Below are positions 1,722 through 21,556 of a stretch of DNA of 43,357 nucleotides, piece after piece. Where the stretch lies: NCBI GenBank assembly GCA_035639375.1, contig DASQYF010000008.1, forward strand, positions 1 to 43,357, given 5' to 3'. The stretch is from Nitrososphaeraceae archaeon (GTDB lineage: Archaea > Thermoproteota > Nitrososphaeria > Nitrososphaerales > Nitrososphaeraceae). The notes beneath the pieces were generated by a model. That model saw only the letters and a program-made list of their open reading frames with translations, was not told where the DNA came from and did not search any database. The stretch's first letter is position 1. The number at the start of each line of letters is the position of its first letter. The position numbers and the translations under genes were made by a program.

Positions 1722-3278
1722 ATGTCAAATCCTAATTATGGTGTGTGGAGGCCTATGGCTGAGAACATTGAGTTCAATGCATTAGAGTCCAATTCCAATG
1801 CAGTGATGACTGTGGCGGACACTGTAAGAACTACCCTAGGACCTAAGGGATTAGATAAGCTACTAATAGATCAAGCTATGAATAGACATGTTTCAAATGA
1901 CGGTGTAACAATCTTGCTCTCCCTAAGGGCTATACATCCAGTTGCAAGAATGATTGTAGAAATAGCTGAAAGACAAGAGCAATTAGTTGGTGATGGAACT
2001 ACAACTGCAGTAGTAATGGCAGCTGAAATGATAAAGGAAGGCAAGAGACTCATCAAGGAACTAGGTGTTCATCCAACAAAAGTTGTAGAAGGTATAGAGA
2101 GTGGAGTCAATCATGCATGTCAGCTTTTGGAAAAAGAGGCCAATAAGATTACGCTAAATGACATTGAATTAGAACAGATAATCAAGACATCTCTATCATC
2201 AAAGCTCGACGGAGAAAAACTCTCTTCATTAGTAATTGCAGCACTGAGGTCCGTAGGAAAAAATGCAATGTATAATGGCTCCTATAATTTTGATAAGGCG
2301 ATCATGGTTATTAGAAGAACCAATATGGAGGATAGGACCATCAATGGCATAGTCCTAGAAAGAAAAAGAATGGATCCCGAGATGCCTTTAGAAATAAAAG
2401 AATCAAGGATCCTGATTGCGAAATTAGATTTAAAACCTGTTAAAGAATCTTGGCTTAAAGACAACAGTAAATATGAAGAAATACTTAGCATGGAAAATGA
2501 TAGGGTTATCAAATCAAAAGAAATAGTAGATGCCATGCTAGCAACTAGTGCAAATACCATCTTGATTGCGTCACCTGAAGTAGATCAGGTTATAGAGGAT
2601 CTTCTTGTAGCAAGAAAGGTATTTGCCGTCCGTATATCTACAGAAGAAATTGAATATCTGTCGCGATATACTGGAGCTAAGGCTATAAGAACGATTGAAG
2701 ATCTAAAAAAAACAGATATTTTAGGTAAAGCAGGTCATATATATGAAGATGAAGATAATGGGGTAATATACATAGAGAATGGTTTGGGTAGAAATATGGT
2801 TACAATGATTGTATCTGGTACAACTAAAGAGACATCTCTTGAGCGATGGAGGGCTGCTATAGATGGCGTAAATGCTGCCGAAGCGGCTCTGAATAAAGGA
2901 GTTGTTGCCGGCGGAGGCTCTGCAGAATTGCATGTCATAGAGAAAGTAAATAATTTGAGATTGAAGGGTCTTGAACAAGTTGGCCTAGAGGTTGTCACTT
3001 CAGCTTTAGAAAGCATTATGCGTCAAATACTAACAAATGCAGGCTATAATGGATTAGAAAAGGTTATGGCAGCAAAAGCATCGCCTAGTGGTTTTGGTAT
3101 TGATATTGATTCAGGCGAAGTAGTAGATATGTGGAAAAAGGGTGTGCTTGATCCTTTATTGGTTAAGACGATGGCTCTTCAGGCTGCAGGAGAGATATCT
3201 AAATCTGTTTTAAGAATAGATAAAAACCTGGCAGCAGAAGATCTGAGTCATCAGGCAGTATCAGAGGTAAAAAGGTGA
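1722..3278 (+). CDS. Group II chaperonin (thermosome/CCT family), divergent short paralogue
   Basis: 518 aa. Motifs present: [29 protein letters not shown] (ATP site), [19 protein letters not shown]. Overall architecture matches a thermosome, including the apical insertion region. It lacks the usual Gly/Met-rich C-terminal tail. Confidence 0.9.
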
Positions 3279-14257: not shown

Positions 14258-15640
14258 CTATTTTACGATTCTGAATATTTTTCCATCATCATATGACAAT
14301 ATATACAAAAACCCATCAGGTCCTGTCTCGATATCAGTTATACGGCCAAAGCCAGTTCCAAAAATTATTGCTGATAATTCGTCATTATTATCTGCCACAA
14401 AATCAGTTAATCCAATATAATGACGACCAGTGCTGCTGCTATTACTATCAAACTTTAGGCCTGTCCTTCCTTCATTAACTTCAAAGTAATAGAGATTACC
14501 ATTATTAATATCACCAACAAAAATATTATTTGCAAATCTATCTCCGAGTTTCGATGAATTTAGGAATTCTATGTCAGTAATTCCAATCTGATCTCTCCAG
14601 CTAAATACAGGATCAGTATATATTGAGCTGGAGAAACTGACCAAATCATTAGGCGTTTGATTACTATTTCTAGCAATAGGCCCCATAACTTGTGCCCATC
14701 CACTGTTAAACCCTGGTTTAACCAAATTAACTTCATCATAGCCACTTTCTCCATTTTCCGTATCCCATAAGGTTCCTGTTATAGGATCAAAATCGATGCC
14801 AAAACTATTTCTGATACCGTATGCATAATACCTATCCAACAAGCTTTCAACATTATCCTTATCATTATAATAGCCACCATTACTACTATGATTATCATTA
14901 TTATTATTGTTATAAAACGGATTATTATTGACTGGTAAGCCATTATCTGGGTTTACTCTCAATATTACCGAGGTATCATTAGGATCCTTTCCGTTTTTAT
15001 TATTCTGTAGTACGCTGTCTGGTGCAGTAAGGTCTCCTATAACTGCATACAGGTAATTATCATAGCCTATTTTCAATTTTCCTCCTTGATGATAGGGACC
15101 TGGAGCTGCCGGCAAATCCAAAATCAAAGTACGATTAACTAGATTTGCTCCATTCCAATGATATTGATATACTCTATTTCGTAATGGCTTATCATGGTCT
15201 GATTCAGTAAAATAAAGAAACACAGTATCTTTTCCGCTATGTGTGATTCCGAGCAGTCCACGCTCTCCCTTAGTGTCAACTTGTACTTTCAACACTGGCT
15301 TCTTTTGTAGAATACCATTTGAGATAAGATGTACTGTTCCAGTATTCTTTTGCAAAACCAAAATATTGTTATTATCTATAAATTCCATGCTTGTAGGAAA
15401 AGACAACCCTTCAGTTACTAATTCTACTTTCAGAGAGTTGTATGGAATTTGTAAAGATGGACCTTGTTTCCTTTTCTGCTGTTGTGTTTGGCCTATGATG
15501 ACATTCATTATGTTAAAGTAGAATGCGAATATTATTATGATCAGTATTATAATTATTATAGTAATAGATAAAACAAAAAGAAATTTCTTCTTTTTATTTC
15601 GCCTGTTTTCATCAATGTTACTGCTTATAGAGCTAGTCAA
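14258..15640 (-). CDS. Membrane-anchored PQQ-dependent (soluble glucose/sorbosone dehydrogenase-type) beta-propeller sugar dehydrogenase
   Basis: N-terminal basic stretch plus Ile-rich TM segment. Family motifs: LSFPTSMEF, GERGLLGI, YHQGGKLKIGYDNYLYAVIGD, ILRVNPDNG, AYGIRNSFGIDFDP..G.LWDTENG, and DEVNLVKPGFNSGW. Contains an Asn-rich insert. TTG start. Confidence 0.85.
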   Translation of the reverse strand: MTSSISSNIDENRRNKKKKFLFVLSITIIIIILIIIIFAFYFNIMNVIIGQTQQQKRKQGPSLQIPYNSLKVELVTEGLSFPTSMEFIDNNNILVLQKNTGTVHLISNGILQKKPVLKVQVDTKGERGLLGITHSGKDTVFLYFTESDHDKPLRNRVYQYHWNGANLVNRTLILDLPAAPGPYHQGGKLKIGYDNYLYAVIGDLTAPDSVLQNNKNGKDPNDTSVILRVNPDNGLPVNNNPFYNNNNNDNHSSNGGYYNDKDNVESLLDRYYAYGIRNSFGIDFDPITGTLWDTENGESGYDEVNLVKPGFNSGWAQVMGPIARNSNQTPNDLVSFSSSIYTDPVFSWRDQIGITDIEFLNSSKLGDRFANNIFVGDINNGNLYYFEVNEGRTGLKFDSNSSSTGRHYIGLTDFVADNNDELSAIIFGTGFGRITDIETGPDGFLYILSYDDGKIFRIVK

Positions 15641-16589: not shown

Positions 16590-17297
16590 TCATAGTGTCT
16601 GTGAAGAGTCTCTAACCATATTTTGAACCATTGCAGTGTGATTAGAAGCAAAACCGAATGAAAGGAGATTTCTCAATATGATAGAAAGATATGGAAAACT
16701 ATGTTTTGTCTCGGATTTGTACCCATAGAAAAAAGCCCTTTCTATTGCCTGATATTGAGAGTTCTCAAGATCGATTACACTTGCAAGAAATGAACCGATA
16801 TCAATACTTCGTGAAAATATCGAAGCTTTTTTTTGTATGAATCCTAAATCAGTTCTAATAAGAGACATGTCTGATGCGACAAGGTAATTCTGCGATTTAT
16901 TGTCTGTAAAAACGTAATTTGCTTTATGTAATTTGCCAGTTAGAACTCCTGCTTGGAAGGCCAACGTTGAATTTTTACCATCTGAAAATGCTCGGTAGAG
17001 GTCTCCTTGTTGTATATATTCTTCAATGATAACGGAATCTGAAATTGAAATAAGCTCTGGCGTAGGAATGCCTAAGTTTTGTAATTTCCTTCTCATATCG
17101 TAACCCTCGTTTTCTAACATAACTTTTCCCAAATGAGGGGGGGCAGAGGGATGAGCCAGCAAAATAGAAGCAAGAGTATAAGTGAATATTAAGAGATATT
17201 CATGAAAAACTTTTGTTGATTTATTTTTTTTTATAACTACTTTCCGTCCACCAAGGTATTCTATGGATATCTTTCTTTGCCAATTGACTAGATACAA
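16590..17297 (-). CDS. Atypical small protein-kinase-fold protein (Bud32/RIO/Kdo-kinase-like)
   Basis: GRKVVIKK supplies the beta3 Lys. ...IIEEYIQQG resembles a hinge. LHKANYVFTDNKSQNYL is a catalytic-loop-like D..N. IRTDLGF is DFG-like. There is a hydrophobic insert after the Lys. TTG start. Family assignment is tentative. Confidence 0.5.
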   Translation of the reverse strand: MYLVNWQRKISIEYLGGRKVVIKKNKSTKVFHEYLLIFTYTLASILLAHPSAPPHLGKVMLENEGYDMRRKLQNLGIPTPELISISDSVIIEEYIQQGDLYRAFSDGKNSTLAFQAGVLTGKLHKANYVFTDNKSQNYLVASDMSLIRTDLGFIQKKASIFSRSIDIGSFLASVIDLENSQYQAIERAFFYGYKSETKHSFPYLSIILRNLLSFGFASNHTAMVQNMVRDSSQTL

Positions 17298-17372
17298 ATT
17301 ATTCTTGGTATATAGTATGGACTCCCTGTATAAGTTTCAATATATATTAGGATATAACATAAAGATAAAACA

Positions 17373-18050
17373 TTGCAAATACATGAGGGACATAAAAATG
17401 CTAGAAAATTTTTTAACTCTAAAACTGCGTCTAGCTACGATTCTGTCGTTCGTCTTACTACCTTCGGACAGGATTACCTGTGGAAAAATCATATATTGGG
17501 CATCCTAGATAAAAGAGAAACTATTCTCGACCTTGCTTGCGGAACGGGGATTCTTTCTTCATTATTATCAAAAAATAATAAAAAACAAGTAATAGGCTTA
17601 GATCTAGCCTTGGATTATTTGAAAATTGCAAAAACTAAAACGAGAAATTGCTTATTTATTAATGGTAATGCAGAAACATTACCTTATAGGTGTAACAGCT
17701 TTGATACGATCATATCGTCGTACTTAGCCAAATATGTGCATATCGGAGAATTGATAGAAGAATGTTGGCGTATATTAAAGCATAATGGCATTATAGTTTT
17801 TCATGACTTTATTTACCCACAAAATGTTATTTTTCGCAAGTTATGGGATGCATATTTTGTAGTTCTTCAAATATTTGGTAAATTTTCGGCCTCTTGGAGA
17901 GTCGTATTCAGAGACTTAAATAAGGTCATAAGAAATACTAAATGGGTAAAAGAAATGATGTATATTCTACACCAGGCGGGATTCAAGAGTATTTCTTGCA
18001 CTGTTTATACTATGCAAACCGCGGCAATTATTTCAGCAAAAAAACCTTGA
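17373..18050 (+). CDS. Class I SAM-dependent methyltransferase, UbiE/MenG-like
   Basis: SSYDSVVRLTTFGQDYLWK is the UbiE-type N-terminal motif. ILDLACGTGIL is SAM motif I. Also VIGLDL, NAETLPYRCNSFDTII and LKHNGIIVFHDF. TTG start. Confidence 0.88.
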   Translation: MQIHEGHKNARKFFNSKTASSYDSVVRLTTFGQDYLWKNHILGILDKRETILDLACGTGILSSLLSKNNKKQVIGLDLALDYLKIAKTKTRNCLFINGNAETLPYRCNSFDTIISSYLAKYVHIGELIEECWRILKHNGIIVFHDFIYPQNVIFRKLWDAYFVVLQIFGKFSASWRVVFRDLNKVIRNTKWVKEMMYILHQAGFKSISCTVYTMQTAAIISAKKP

Positions 18051-18757
18051 ATGAAGATACTCGTTTAAATGAGTGGTTCGTACCGAAATTTGGGCCTATA
18101 AAATTTCGCATTTTTATAGGCTTGTTATTTCTTCCATATACAGGTATGTGTATATCCTTTACCATAATTGGTTCTCTTCTTTCTCCTTCCGTATTGTGGG
18201 ATAGAGTTATTGCTATCTGTGTTATTTATGCTCTAGCACTAGGAGTGTCAGCACATGCCGCTGATATCTTAGGTTCAAAAATTAAGCCGTGGGGGAATTA
18301 CCTTAACAAACGACAATTATGGATATTGATAATTTCCGGTCTAATAGTTGCATACACTATTGGAGTCTATTATATAATTTTTTATGTATCACTACTTGGC
18401 ATAGTTGCCATATTAGAAGGATTTTTTGTTTTTGCATATAATCTGGAACTATTCAAAGGATTGTTTCATAACAATTTCTGGTTTGCAATTTCTTGGGGTG
18501 TCCTCCCATTGCTGGCGGGATTTATTATGCAAACTAATTCCATCGGGTTCTTATCGATAATTGTATCGTTAATAACAGGTCTGGAAAGCTATATTGAAAT
18601 TAAAACATCTAGACAATATAAAGAACTGATAAGAAATGGACGTGACAAATTTCGAATCAAAAAACTTGAGACCAGGCTTAAGTTAGTGAGTTTAGGAACT
18701 ATAGTTTTTACCATTATCTTGGTTGTTTTTAGATTAGTCGCAGGATCATTTTTTTAG
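18047..18757 (+). CDS. Polytopic membrane protein, unknown function
   Basis: About 7 hydrophobic segments. I place the start at the in-frame TTG at 18047, which overlaps the methyltransferase stop (TTGA). The track start at 17942 lies inside the upstream gene. It has a YNLELFKG...WG..PLLAG pattern faintly like UbiA-family helices, but no Asp-rich motifs. Confidence 0.7.
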   Translation: MNEDTRLNEWFVPKFGPIKFRIFIGLLFLPYTGMCISFTIIGSLLSPSVLWDRVIAICVIYALALGVSAHAADILGSKIKPWGNYLNKRQLWILIISGLIVAYTIGVYYIIFYVSLLGIVAILEGFFVFAYNLELFKGLFHNNFWFAISWGVLPLLAGFIMQTNSIGFLSIIVSLITGLESYIEIKTSRQYKELIRNGRDKFRIKKLETRLKLVSLGTIVFTIILVVFRLVAGSFF

Positions 18758-19266
18758 TGTTTGTATATTATTGTAAACAATTGGCTATTGTTTCAATAAC
18801 GATAAAAGATTTTTCATGCTATATGCTAGAGAAGATAGCCGAGTTGGAATGCAAAGCAAACATCATTCTTCCCCTTTATGCAAAAATACTTATCTCCGAA
18901 ACCGGAACTATAGAGCAAATACTGAGTATATTGACTAATTCAAAAACTCAAGTAAAAATCTTAAAACAGAAAGAAAGTCCTGAGTTGATCAAACGACAGA
19001 TATTTATTATCAATAAAAAAACTGGGGAACGATTAGCATATGCAAGATCAAATATTTTTCCTACCTGTCTTCCTCAGAAAATAATAAAGAAAATAAAGGA
19101 GAGGAAGGAGGGTATAGGAAAGATTATTGTGAATTCTAAATTAGAAACCTTCCGATATATATTAAAAATCGGTTATGATTCAAAAACCAAATCAGCATTT
19201 AGAATTTACCAAATTATACATAAAGGACGTGTGGCTTTTGAAATTAAGGAGAATTTTACTATATAA
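18757..19266 (+). CDS. Chorismate-lyase-fold (UbiC/DUF98-like) protein
   Basis: ILISETGTIEQILSIL matches the UbiC 'LLxxDxSxTxxxE' region. Also R(Q)IFIINKKTGERLAYARSNIFP...GIGKII...FRIYQIIHKGRVAFEIKENF. The GTG at 18757 overlaps the previous stop by 1 nt. An alternative ATG lies at 18823. Confidence 0.6.
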   Translation: MFVYYCKQLAIVSITIKDFSCYMLEKIAELECKANIILPLYAKILISETGTIEQILSILTNSKTQVKILKQKESPELIKRQIFIINKKTGERLAYARSNIFPTCLPQKIIKKIKERKEGIGKIIVNSKLETFRYILKIGYDSKTKSAFRIYQIIHKGRVAFEIKENFTI

Positions 19267-19296: not shown

Positions 19297-19370
19297 TGGA
19301 CCGGGTGGGATTCGAACCCACGACCTCAGCAATGCCAATGCCGTATCCTACCGGACTAGACGACCGGCCC
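19297..19370 (-). tRNA. tRNA-Ala (anticodon GGC)
   Basis: The reverse complement GGGCCGGTCGTCTAGTCCGGTAGGATACGGCATTGGCATTGCTGAGGTCGTGGGTTCGAATCCCACCCGGTCCA folds as a cloverleaf. It has a 7-bp acceptor stem with the G3:U70 Ala identity pair, a TTGGCAT anticodon loop and a GTGGG/TTCGAAT/CCCAC T-arm. No encoded CCA and no intron. Confidence 0.93.
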
Positions 19371-19461: not shown

Positions 19462-19884
19462 GTGGCGCTAGAACAGTCTATAGGAGCAATTATAAGATAT
19501 GGTACTTCTTTGGAAAATGCAGAATCTCAGTTTCTTCTCTTGAGAAATAGGAGAGGTTTCTGGGGTTTTCCACAGGGACATAAAGAAAAAGGCGAAACTG
19601 ATATACGAACCCTAATAAGAGAAGTATCTGAAGAAACAGGCATCGTCTGTTTGTATATTCAATCATATATAGGTAGAATTCATTATTCTTATTTTAAAGC
19701 AGATGGTATGAAATCAGAAAAGGAAGTCAGATTTTATTTTGCAACCACCTCTACTAGGAAGATAAAGATCTCTAAAGAACACGATGGCTATAAATGGGTA
19801 ACATTTTCAAACGCTTTATGTATTCTTAACCATCGACAGCTTAAGTCAATACTGATTAAAGGTCACAGAAAAGGTCTCTATTAA
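19462..19884 (+). CDS. Nudix hydrolase
   Basis: Nudix box GHKEKGETDIRTLIREVSEETGI (Gx5Ex7REUxEExGU). GTG start. Confidence 0.9.
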   Translation: MALEQSIGAIIRYGTSLENAESQFLLLRNRRGFWGFPQGHKEKGETDIRTLIREVSEETGIVCLYIQSYIGRIHYSYFKADGMKSEKEVRFYFATTSTRKIKISKEHDGYKWVTFSNALCILNHRQLKSILIKGHRKGLY

Positions 19885-19981: not shown

Positions 19982-21556
19982 ATGGCGGCTGGGAGACGTA
20001 TAGTTTTAACAGCGGACCGTAGCCTAATGACCAATTATAGAGGAAACTTCCTATATGGTTTCATTGCGTGCGGACCTTATGAGTTAGTCCCCGAATTTGT
20101 CTTCGATAAGTTATTTTGTCCGAGCGTAGAGACTGACAAAAGTACTGGAGAGATTAAGGTTGCCCAATGCGGATTAAGAAGAATCGAAGGGGCACTTTTG
20201 AAAGAATATGAACGAGAAGATATTTTCCTTGCTCATCCAGAAATGCTTGACAAATGTATAGGACCAGATACAAAGGTAGTTGGTATTAATGTAATGGATC
20301 CGCTAGGTATGGCACCAGTCACCACGACAATGTCTCCAGAAAAACTGTCTTACGTTGCTATGAAATTTAAGAAGATGTGTGCTTCAATCATACAATTAAA
20401 AAAGAAGTTTAACTTTAAAGTGGTAGTAGGTGGAAATGGTTCATGGGAATTAGCTAAGCCTGACAGAATGAAGATCCACGGAATTGATACAGTTGTGATT
20501 GGTGAGGCTGACGAACTCGCTCTAGATCTTTTTCATGATTTAGAGGCAGAGGATGCACCAGAATTACTTCACACCTTTGTTAGAAATATCGACAACATTC
20601 CTTTGATAAGAGGCCCTACTATAAATTCGTTGATCGAAGCAATGCGTGGGTGTGGAAGGGGTTGTGACTTTTGTGATGTTAACAAACGGTCAAAGAAAGA
20701 TATACCATTAGATAGATTGCAGACTGAGGCCAGGATTAATTTGAAATATGGCTTTGATTCTATTTGGCTTCAGTCAGATGAAATGCTTCTTTATGGATGT
20801 GATAACAAGAATTTTATTCCAAATTCTGATGCAATCTTGGATGTGTGGAAAGGATTAAAATCTGTGGGTGCAAATTTTGTGGGCACAACCCATATGACAT
20901 TATCAGCTGTTACGTCATCACCAAGCCTTATCAAGAGTCTCTCTGAGGTAAATAATATGGATGCGACTGGAAGGTGGCTTGCAACTAATTTAGGAGTAGA
21001 GACGGTAGCACCCAGGATGGTAAAAAAACATCTAGGCGTAAAGACAAAGCCATACCAGCCTGAGGAGTGGGGTGCCGTAGTGAGAGAGGGTTGTAAGATT
21101 CTAAACCAAAATCATTGGTTCCCTGCGCTGACGCTTATTATAGGATGGCCCGATGAAACGCCCGATGAAACACAATATACAATAGATCTAATTGAGGACT
21201 TTAGAGAAATGAATATGAGAGGTCTAGTTGCACCATTACTTTACCAAGATTTTTCAGAGAAGAATTCTATGCACTTTGGAAACTTAAATGAAGCACAATT
21301 CACTTTATTCTGGAAATGTTGGCAACATAACTTATGGGTAATCAACGATATAATTCCTATAATTATCAGAAATAAGACATATGGTCCTGCAATGAAAGTG
21401 TTCATGGCTGGATTAATAAAGGCAGGAACTTGGGCTATAATGAAATATCTGCGTGGATTATCAAAAGATCTCTTTGATGGACAACTCCCTGAAGATATTG
21501 TTGATAGGTATGCCCGACAGAGATCAGTGACAGCTCCAGTACCCCCAGGTCTCTAA
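19982..21556 (+). CDS. Radical SAM enzyme with N-terminal B12-binding-like (Rossmann) domain; substrate unknown
   Basis: CGRGCDFC is the CxxxCxxC cluster motif. Upstream VVGINVMDPLG and KVVVGGNGSWEL...VVIGEADE resemble the class-B radical SAM N-domain. 524 aa. Confidence 0.88.
   Translation: MAAGRRIVLTADRSLMTNYRGNFLYGFIACGPYELVPEFVFDKLFCPSVETDKSTGEIKVAQCGLRRIEGALLKEYEREDIFLAHPEMLDKCIGPDTKVVGINVMDPLGMAPVTTTMSPEKLSYVAMKFKKMCASIIQLKKKFNFKVVVGGNGSWELAKPDRMKIHGIDTVVIGEADELALDLFHDLEAEDAPELLHTFVRNIDNIPLIRGPTINSLIEAMRGCGRGCDFCDVNKRSKKDIPLDRLQTEARINLKYGFDSIWLQSDEMLLYGCDNKNFIPNSDAILDVWKGLKSVGANFVGTTHMTLSAVTSSPSLIKSLSEVNNMDATGRWLATNLGVETVAPRMVKKHLGVKTKPYQPEEWGAVVREGCKILNQNHWFPALTLIIGWPDETPDETQYTIDLIEDFREMNMRGLVAPLLYQDFSEKNSMHFGNLNEAQFTLFWKCWQHNLWVINDIIPIIIRNKTYGPAMKVFMAGLIKAGTWAIMKYLRGLSKDLFDGQLPEDIVDRYARQRSVTAPVPPGL

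Follow-up and report, generated by a model that had tools for sequence, protein, structure and literature searches.

A methyltransferase paired with a predicted UbiA-fold membrane protein in ammonia-oxidizing archaea, and its possible role beside the menaquinone pathway

The window that we analyzed is a 43,357-nt stretch of DNA (contig DASQYF010000008.1 of assembly GCA_035639375.1) from a Ca. Nitrosocosmicus-like soil ammonia oxidizer of the family Nitrososphaeraceae. It contains three plus-strand genes in a row. The first, at 17373-18050, encodes a UbiE/COQ5-family methyltransferase of 225 amino acids that depends on S-adenosylmethionine (SAM); we call it MT. The second, at 18047-18757, encodes MEM, a membrane protein of 236 amino acids that is predicted to have a divergent UbiA fold. 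The third, whose frame is open from a GTG at 18757 and ends at 19266, encodes a chorismate-pyruvate-lyase-fold protein of Pfam family PF01947 (DUF98, Rv2949c-like). A preliminary description, made from the sequence alone, listed these open reading frames and a fourth, divergent one for a small kinase-like protein, and all of its coordinates are correct. MT and MEM are an ancient obligate pair and the core of the three-gene unit, and conservation supports the three genes as a real functional unit.

The pairing is seen throughout the ammonia-oxidizing archaea. MEM occurs in 23 of 24 Nitrososphaeraceae genomes; where the locus was examined, MT immediately precedes it, in many cases with an overlap. 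The order MT-MEM-PF01947 is kept at every Nitrososphaeraceae locus examined save two of one genus, which have no detectable PF01947 gene. The three genes also stay together, rearranged, in Nitrosocaldaceae and Nitrosopumilaceae. (In Nitrosopumilaceae, MEM is followed by the PF01947 gene, with MT convergent; a gene for an epimerase-type short-chain dehydrogenase/reductase, or SDR, separates MT from MEM in Nitrosocaldaceae and in another family.) In all of the ammonia-oxidizer families that have MEM, MT and MEM are described by our survey as adjacent or overlapping. Farther off in Nitrososphaeria, two genomes have MT in divergent orientation next to a relative of MEM.

The pair is found in bacteria as well. 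When we scanned metagenome contigs with an alignment of the bacterial-type MEM, we obtained 576 relatives and 38 loci with usable flanks. In these loci, from soil bacteria, MEM is immediately preceded by a UbiE-family methyltransferase gene of the same strand in 19 of 38 cases, and an SDR gene lies divergently upstream in 14 of 38. Neighbors such as PknG point to Actinobacteria. Furthermore, MT and MEM are fused into a single chain in at least nine protein clusters (P0234, P0291, and P0293-P0299). (P0289, an apparent fusion of 434 amino acids, has a low-complexity N-terminus and is probably an over-extended gene call; it is not counted here.) Other fusions exist. In one lineage, MEM is joined to an SRPBCC domain (Polyketide_cyc), and a single metagenomic protein of 1028 amino acids, P0288, has a family-2 glycosyltransferase (GT2) at residues 298-578, extra membrane segments, and a MEM domain at 803-1028. 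The C-terminal extensions of P0290, P0292, and P0300, of 300 amino acids, match no Pfam family.

Within the window, MT and MEM overlap at the TTGA of 18047-18050, as the preliminary description had reported. Homologs of MEM begin exactly at the TTG residue of this overlap (MNEDTRLNEWF...), which supports the TTG start. A second translational chain, through a TAGTG at 18755-18759 between MEM and the third gene, had also been proposed. The letters are there, but homologs of the PF01947 protein align only from residue 18-23 onwards, with a conserved Met at the ATG of 18823, so the gene probably starts at that ATG. The start at 18823 would leave a 65-nt gap after MEM rather than an overlap, and the second chain is therefore doubtful.

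We then examined MEM, which had been described as a novel protein with seven transmembrane helices. It falls outside all Pfam and NCBIfam models; against Pfam's UbiA family (PF01040) it scores 22.0 bits, under the gathering cut-off of 34.2. Its AlphaFold2 (AF2) model, however, has eight predicted helices (pLDDT 88), and structure searches with the model lead to UbiA enzymes. In a comparison with VIA, the four best matches were AfUbiA (PDB:4TQ3; Z 15.1, root-mean-square deviation 3.5, 203 residues aligned), UBIAD1 (8DJM; Z 14.8), ApUbiA (4OD4; Z 14.7), and DGGGP synthase (6M31; Z 14.7), with about 200 residues aligned. Next came a membrane phosphoribosyltransferase of the same superfamily and then soluble prenyl synthases (Z of 12 or less). 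The top ten Foldseek matches all belong to the UbiA family, with weak E-values (0.03-0.2). At the sequence level, a profile of the MEM family also retrieves genuine UbiA genes of other genomes (E of about 1e-7), and hhalign of this profile against single UbiA paralogs gave weak partial alignments only (probability under 5%). An Atlas look-up returned no named relatives of MEM beyond "putative UbiA family prenyltransferase." As modeled, then, MEM is a divergent member of the UbiA superfamily and not a new fold.

The preliminary description was right that MEM has no UbiA-type Asp-rich motifs. We compared MEM with the three true UbiA paralogs of the same genome (heme O synthase, a MenA-like protein, and an EboC-like protein), all of which keep NDxxDxxxD-type motifs. 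The first motif, NDxxDxxxD, is not in MEM, where the matching segment is SAHAADILGSK (AHALDE in the wider family). The second motif, DxxxD, is nowhere in MEM. Its region reads SYIEIKTSRQYKE, with S-Y-x-E-I-K-x-S-R at the position of the motif, and Y-N-x-E...F-H-N-N occupies the region of the Y-S-x-x-K motif. In place of the two Asp-rich motifs for Mg-diphosphate, MEM thus has A-H-x-x-D, Y-N-x-E...F-H, and S-R-x-x-K/R. Across the MEM family (629 clusters at 50% identity, E <1e-10), P30, G42, H70, Y131, H141, and S188 are invariant. Two stretches do align with features of UbiA enzymes: K-P-W-G, which follows motif 1, and the Y-N/S motif. But MEM is shorter than those enzymes, and, unlike them, it always has a methyltransferase as its partner or as part of the same chain.

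MT belongs to the UbiE/COQ5 family of SAM methyltransferases, much as had been proposed (UbiE/MenG type). It scores 86.6 bits against PF01209 (cut-off 20.1; residues 10-221), it has the glycine-rich SAM-binding motif ILDLACGTG, and its best NCBIfam matches are UbiE/MenG models. In these respects it resembles the demethylmenaquinone methyltransferases MenG and UbiE. Yet it falls far under the cut-off of every MenG/UbiE equivalog model in NCBIfam (for TIGR01934, MenG_MenH_UbiE, the score is 116.2 bits and the cut-off is 158.35), and it is a paralog of a second, widespread UbiE-like methyltransferase. In a maximum-likelihood tree of these methyltransferases, built from sequences other than biochemically proven references, the MEM-linked proteins of archaea and bacteria lie together, and a branch with 100/100 support parts them from the archaeon's other UbiE-like methyltransferase. 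Within the ammonia oxidizers, the topology follows the families.

The third protein has the UbiC/DUF98-like fold that had been suggested for it. It scores 36.2 bits against PF01947 (cut-off 22), and its profile matches the DUF98 structure of AF1396 (PDB:2NWI) at 5e-9. Its AF2 model (pLDDT 89.6) is closest in Foldseek to 2NWI (TM 0.76), followed by E. coli chorismate lyase (1FW9 and 1JD3; TM 0.60-0.62) and then by UTRA ligand-binding domains. Four residues, Q49, R58, Y129, and E143, do not vary among 14 archaeal PF01947 sequences and recur in AF1396. Of these, R58 and E143 are candidate counterparts of R76 and E155, the Arg and Glu of the catalytic or product pocket of UbiC. Family, fold, and conserved residues thus liken the protein to AF1396 and the Rv2949c-type lyases, but identity is only about 24%, the gene here is tied to that of a membrane protein, and the lyase role is putative.

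One genus of Nitrosopumilaceae has no PF01947 gene next to MEM; instead, another small conserved protein of 130-170 amino acids is encoded divergently upstream (L046:6627-7142, plus strand, and L049:5518-5919, minus strand). It ends in ...VCIILS.xY.SE. In Pfam, one of the two has a faint match to AraC_binding and the other has none. This protein may be an alternative third component.

The neighborhood in Nitrosocaldus bears out the prenyl-lipid or quinone flavor that the preliminary description saw in the unit. There, the unit is flanked by genes for a polyprenyl synthase, a flavoprotein of the geranylgeranyl reductase family, and a lipid-type extended SDR. In a complete Nitrosocaldaceae genome of 1.58 Mb (locus L016), the genes are MT, the epimerase-type SDR, MEM, PF01947, the polyprenyl synthase, and the geranylgeranyl-reductase-like gene. 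The same genes were drawn by Abby et al. 2018 (PMC5797428, Fig 8) as cargo of ICE-2, a putative immobilized conjugative element of Ca. Nitrosocaldus cavascurensis. They were labeled CHLP, GGPS, UbiC, UbiA, RmlB, and UbiE, without further analysis. This figure label is the sole mention that our literature searches turned up; they yielded no functional study of the module or of the MEM family. (At L016, a HerA/DUF87-type ATPase gene lies upstream of the module at 1767-3122 on the plus strand, which fits the published placement in ICE-2.) In contrast, the unit in the window is chromosomal and lies among housekeeping genes, with no SDR, synthase, or reductase gene beside it. The window's MEM gene is 99% identical to one in a public Nitrosocosmicus metagenome-assembled genome.

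Could these genes be a missing menaquinone route, as the preliminary description had suggested? We have several pieces of evidence that they are not.

First, most of a menaquinone pathway is encoded elsewhere in the window's genome. MqnC scores above its cut-off and lies outside the module, next to an MqnE-like paralog. The genome has one PF02621 gene, whose structural matches are the MqnD proteins TTHA1568 and AF1704, not MqnA. A UbiD of the menaquinone-decarboxylase type (MqnL) and the MenA-like prenyltransferase are likewise outside the module. A canonical Mqn pathway elsewhere thus accounts for the steps to a large extent, except for MqnA, in an inventory that left out MqnB and UbiX.

Second, there is another candidate methyltransferase. 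A second UbiE-like enzyme, of the PRK05785 type, is encoded elsewhere in 5 of 5 genomes tested, including genomes without MEM, and, within the order, in 27 of 31 genomes. Of the 14 control genomes, only the quinone-bearing Sulfolobus has a match to this type above its cut-off. Because of this second enzyme, we rejected the idea that the module's MT is the sole MenG.

Third, the module is patchy where the pathway is not. Our sample of the class had 121 genomes, including 79 from ammonia oxidizers (3 Nitrososphaeraceae, 3 Nitrosocaldaceae, and 73 Nitrosopumilaceae; the last tally includes one unpublished genome, G145, on which no conclusion hangs). All 79 have an MqnD-type PF02621 gene and two copies of UbiD. 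MEM is present in 3/3 Nitrososphaeraceae and 3/3 Nitrosocaldaceae, but strong matches were found in just 32 of the 73 Nitrosopumilaceae, varying even within genera. The module went undetected in roughly half of the complete genomes of this family, each of which has MqnD. Most of the genomes with MEM have the module's MT and a PF01947 gene; in 5 of 5 complete Nitrosopumilaceae genomes without MEM, we found neither an ortholog of the module's MT nor a PF01947 gene. Conversely, seven Nitrososphaeria genomes (85-99% complete) from organisms that do not oxidize ammonia have MEM relatives, and in these neither a MenB above cut-off nor a PF02621 gene was found. The module is accessory to the futalosine pathway and is not a core menaquinone route.

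The exception mentioned above, MqnA, was not detected in any of the 79 ammonia oxidizers sampled. (In the window's genome, G000, this observation is placed at 11182-11961 of contig C350, locus L025; the rest is from the class-wide search.) Four of the 79 genomes gave a second PF02621 match, and elsewhere in the class, a sister family carries two such genes side by side. The futalosine pathway had been attributed to Thaumarchaeota by Zhi et al. 2014 (PMC3914697), who found MqnA in only one of three proteomes. It seems that the futalosine pathway of ammonia-oxidizing archaea lacks MqnA.

We propose, at a probability of roughly one half, that the unit is accessory and methylates an isoprenoid-tailed, probably aromatic, lipid that is made beside the menaquinone pathway. 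MEM would hold the isoprenoid-tailed lipid in a UbiA-type cavity at the cytoplasmic face, and it may also prepare the lipid chemically. The attached MT would then methylate the lipid's head group. The PF01947 protein would either make the aromatic head from chorismate, by 4-hydroxybenzoate-type chemistry, or bind the head and deliver it, presumably in contact with MEM. The product would be a methylated prenyl lipid, probably an aromatic one. The substrate and the chemistry are what we infer from the folds, the motif loss, and the partners described above. A broader idea is tentative and, in our view, has the odds against it: MT-MEM might be an undescribed two-part lipid-methylating machine of archaea and bacteria, in which the UbiA fold has been turned to substrate presentation or to chemistry based on His, Asp, and Glu, and which, together with a chorismate-lyase-fold enzyme, makes a second prenylated aromatic lipid or quinone in ammonia oxidizers.

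Several observations weigh against our proposal. We know of no such lipid, and in work by Elling and colleagues in 2016, ammonia-oxidizing archaea reportedly gave only MK6:0 and MK6:1. MEM is without the defining motifs of prenyl transfer. The third component varies: it is the PF01947 protein in ammonia oxidizers but an SRPBCC domain in one fusion; no PF01947 gene was found, with a family-specific profile, in two MEM-bearing genomes of the Nitrosopumilaceae genus g39; and no lyase gene is adjacent to MT-MEM in the bacterial loci. The idea of an aromatic head therefore rests mainly on the archaeal form. A dedicated UbiD decarboxylase that co-varies with the module was considered and rejected, as the copy number is constant at two. 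A lipid that is not aromatic would likewise be compatible with the GT2-MEM fusion, known from one record, and with the SDRs that recur as partners. On the supporting side, contigs from four soil metatranscriptome libraries (from four studies) cover MT, three of these cover the PF01947 gene, and one contig from a related strain, at 17955-18109, spans the MT/MEM junction. Because RNA libraries can contain DNA, this is a weak hint that MT and MEM are co-transcribed. (Most of MEM and the kinase-like gene have no cover in these contigs, which is uninformative in either direction.)

We weighed this proposal against explanations that give the unit a place in quinone synthesis proper. In one of them, MT is the demethylmenaquinone methyltransferase (MenG/MqnG) and MEM is a membrane adaptor that presents demethylmenaquinol to it. 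That UbiE/MenG models are the best NCBIfam matches of MT, that MT-MEM fusions exist, and that the Nitrosocaldus unit adjoins a polyprenyl synthase gene and a side-chain-reductase-like gene would all fit such a complex. But it is hard to square with the complete Nitrosopumilaceae genomes (about half) in which the module was not found and which keep MqnD and two UbiD copies, with the PRK05785-type methyltransferase and its restriction, among the controls, to Sulfolobus, and with the seven genomes with MEM relatives that show neither MenB above cut-off nor a match to the MqnA/MqnD family. We consider the complex quite unlikely. The unit could instead begin a benzoquinone, with a UbiC-like lyase that makes 4-hydroxybenzoate, MEM as a true 4-hydroxybenzoate polyprenyltransferase with non-canonical metal ligands, and MT as the methylase of the ring. 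The same three folds carry out the UbiC/Sll1797-UbiA-UbiE steps to ubiquinone in E. coli and plastoquinone in cyanobacteria. The third protein has both the PF01947 membership and the chorismate-lyase fold, plus a weak match to the cyanobacterial chorismate lyase model, and MEM keeps D73, E124, N132, E134, and two His as candidate metal ligands. However, both Asp-rich motifs are gone from MEM and kept in the genome's three paralogs, so that MEM has no catalytic motifs of the known type; no decarboxylase or hydroxylase gene is linked to the unit, and the number of decarboxylase genes stays the same whether or not the unit is present; a lyase gene does not adjoin MT-MEM in bacteria; and the lyase activity is putative. 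To our knowledge, no benzoquinone is known in ammonia-oxidizing archaea. The labels UbiC, UbiA, and UbiE in the legend of Abby et al. 2018 (PMC5797428) would agree with this benzoquinone route, which we nevertheless regard as unlikely.

Two other explanations move away from the aromatic ring or from the methyltransferase. MT-MEM might act on a non-aromatic lipid, such as a polyprenyl phosphate, a glycolipid, or the head of an ether lipid, with the PF01947 protein as just a ligand-binding accessory. The GT2-MEM fusion P0288 is in line with this, as are the SDR partners, which resemble the lipid enzymes HpnA, OleD, and SdmB, the MEM relatives in genomes that lack signatures of a menaquinone pathway, and the fold that PF01947 shares with UTRA ligand-binding domains. 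Yet MT comes from the UbiE/COQ5 family, which methylates ring carbons, the PF01947 protein retains the conserved residues of its family, and the GT2 fusion is one record; we doubt that the lipid is non-aromatic. The last possibility is that in ammonia-oxidizing archaea, the PF01947 protein stands in for the chorismate dehydratase MqnA at the start of the futalosine pathway. Nearly all of the 79 genomes have a single PF02621 gene, the window genome's copy is of the MqnD type, the sister family has two adjacent genes, and the PF01947 fold binds chorismate in UbiC. But with the family-specific profile, the PF01947 gene was not found in the 5 complete MqnD-bearing Nitrosopumilaceae genomes or in the two MEM-bearing ones mentioned above, and it travels with MEM and MT, not with mqn genes. 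We rejected this substitution on its phyletic pattern, and we view it as very improbable.

Ammonia-oxidizing archaea are major nitrifiers globally, and their quinones and lipids serve as environmental biomarkers. If our proposal of a methylated prenyl lipid is correct, the module-dependent lipid would be a new marker for the soil lineages, the thermophilic lineages, and part of the marine lineages. The MEM family is large, unmodeled, and repeatedly fused to UbiE-type methyltransferases, and its function would extend the known roles of the UbiA fold. The results also sharpen the MqnA gap of the ammonia oxidizers, which the module does not fill.

Upstream of MT, an AT-rich spacer of 75 nt (17298-17372, read directly from the sequence) separates it from the divergent kinase-like gene (16590-17297, minus strand; 235 amino acids), as had been reported. 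The spacer is a putative promoter. The preliminary description saw in the kinase-like protein a UbiB-like part of the quinone logic, with the Lys, D..N, and D-x-G elements retained. Residues 72-196 of the protein align to a Bud32 structure (PDB:8UNK), D..N and D-L-G included, but the Lys of the N-lobe could not be aligned. It scores 47 bits against the Bud32 model TIGR03724, where the cut-off is 125, and the genome's true Bud32 is on another contig (G000:C72) with 206 bits. Given the score below cut-off, the C-lobe alignment, and the true Bud32 elsewhere, we classify it by homology as a Bud32 paralog, a neighbor that is probably not part of the module. No ABC1/UbiB signal was found: no Pfam family matches the 235-residue protein at E of 0.1 or less, and its NCBIfam relatives are Bud32 models only. 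We therefore rejected it as a UbiB analog. The conservation of the neighborhood across Nitrososphaeria is likewise partial, in that MT, MEM, and PF01947 are kept together but the kinase-like gene is adjacent only within Nitrososphaeraceae. (A third weak Bud32-like match is on contig C285, within a frame of 579 amino acids.)

Downstream, a tRNA-Ala(GGC) gene found with ARAGORN (19297-19370, minus strand) marks the 3' boundary of the three-gene unit and parts it from the NUDIX and radical-SAM genes that follow. The tRNA piece is common to many unrelated RNA contigs. The radical SAM protein (19982-21556, plus strand; 524 amino acids) has a B12-binding-like domain; it has no sequence match in PDB and weak NCBIfam matches. 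Between genera of the family, its sequence identity is 85-88%, and its gene keeps the NUDIX hydrolase gene (19462-19884, plus strand, in the window) as a neighbor. On the other side, upstream of the kinase-like gene, 14258-15640 (minus strand) encodes a GSDH-family (glucose/sorbosone dehydrogenase) protein of 460 amino acids with an N-terminal hydrophobic segment.

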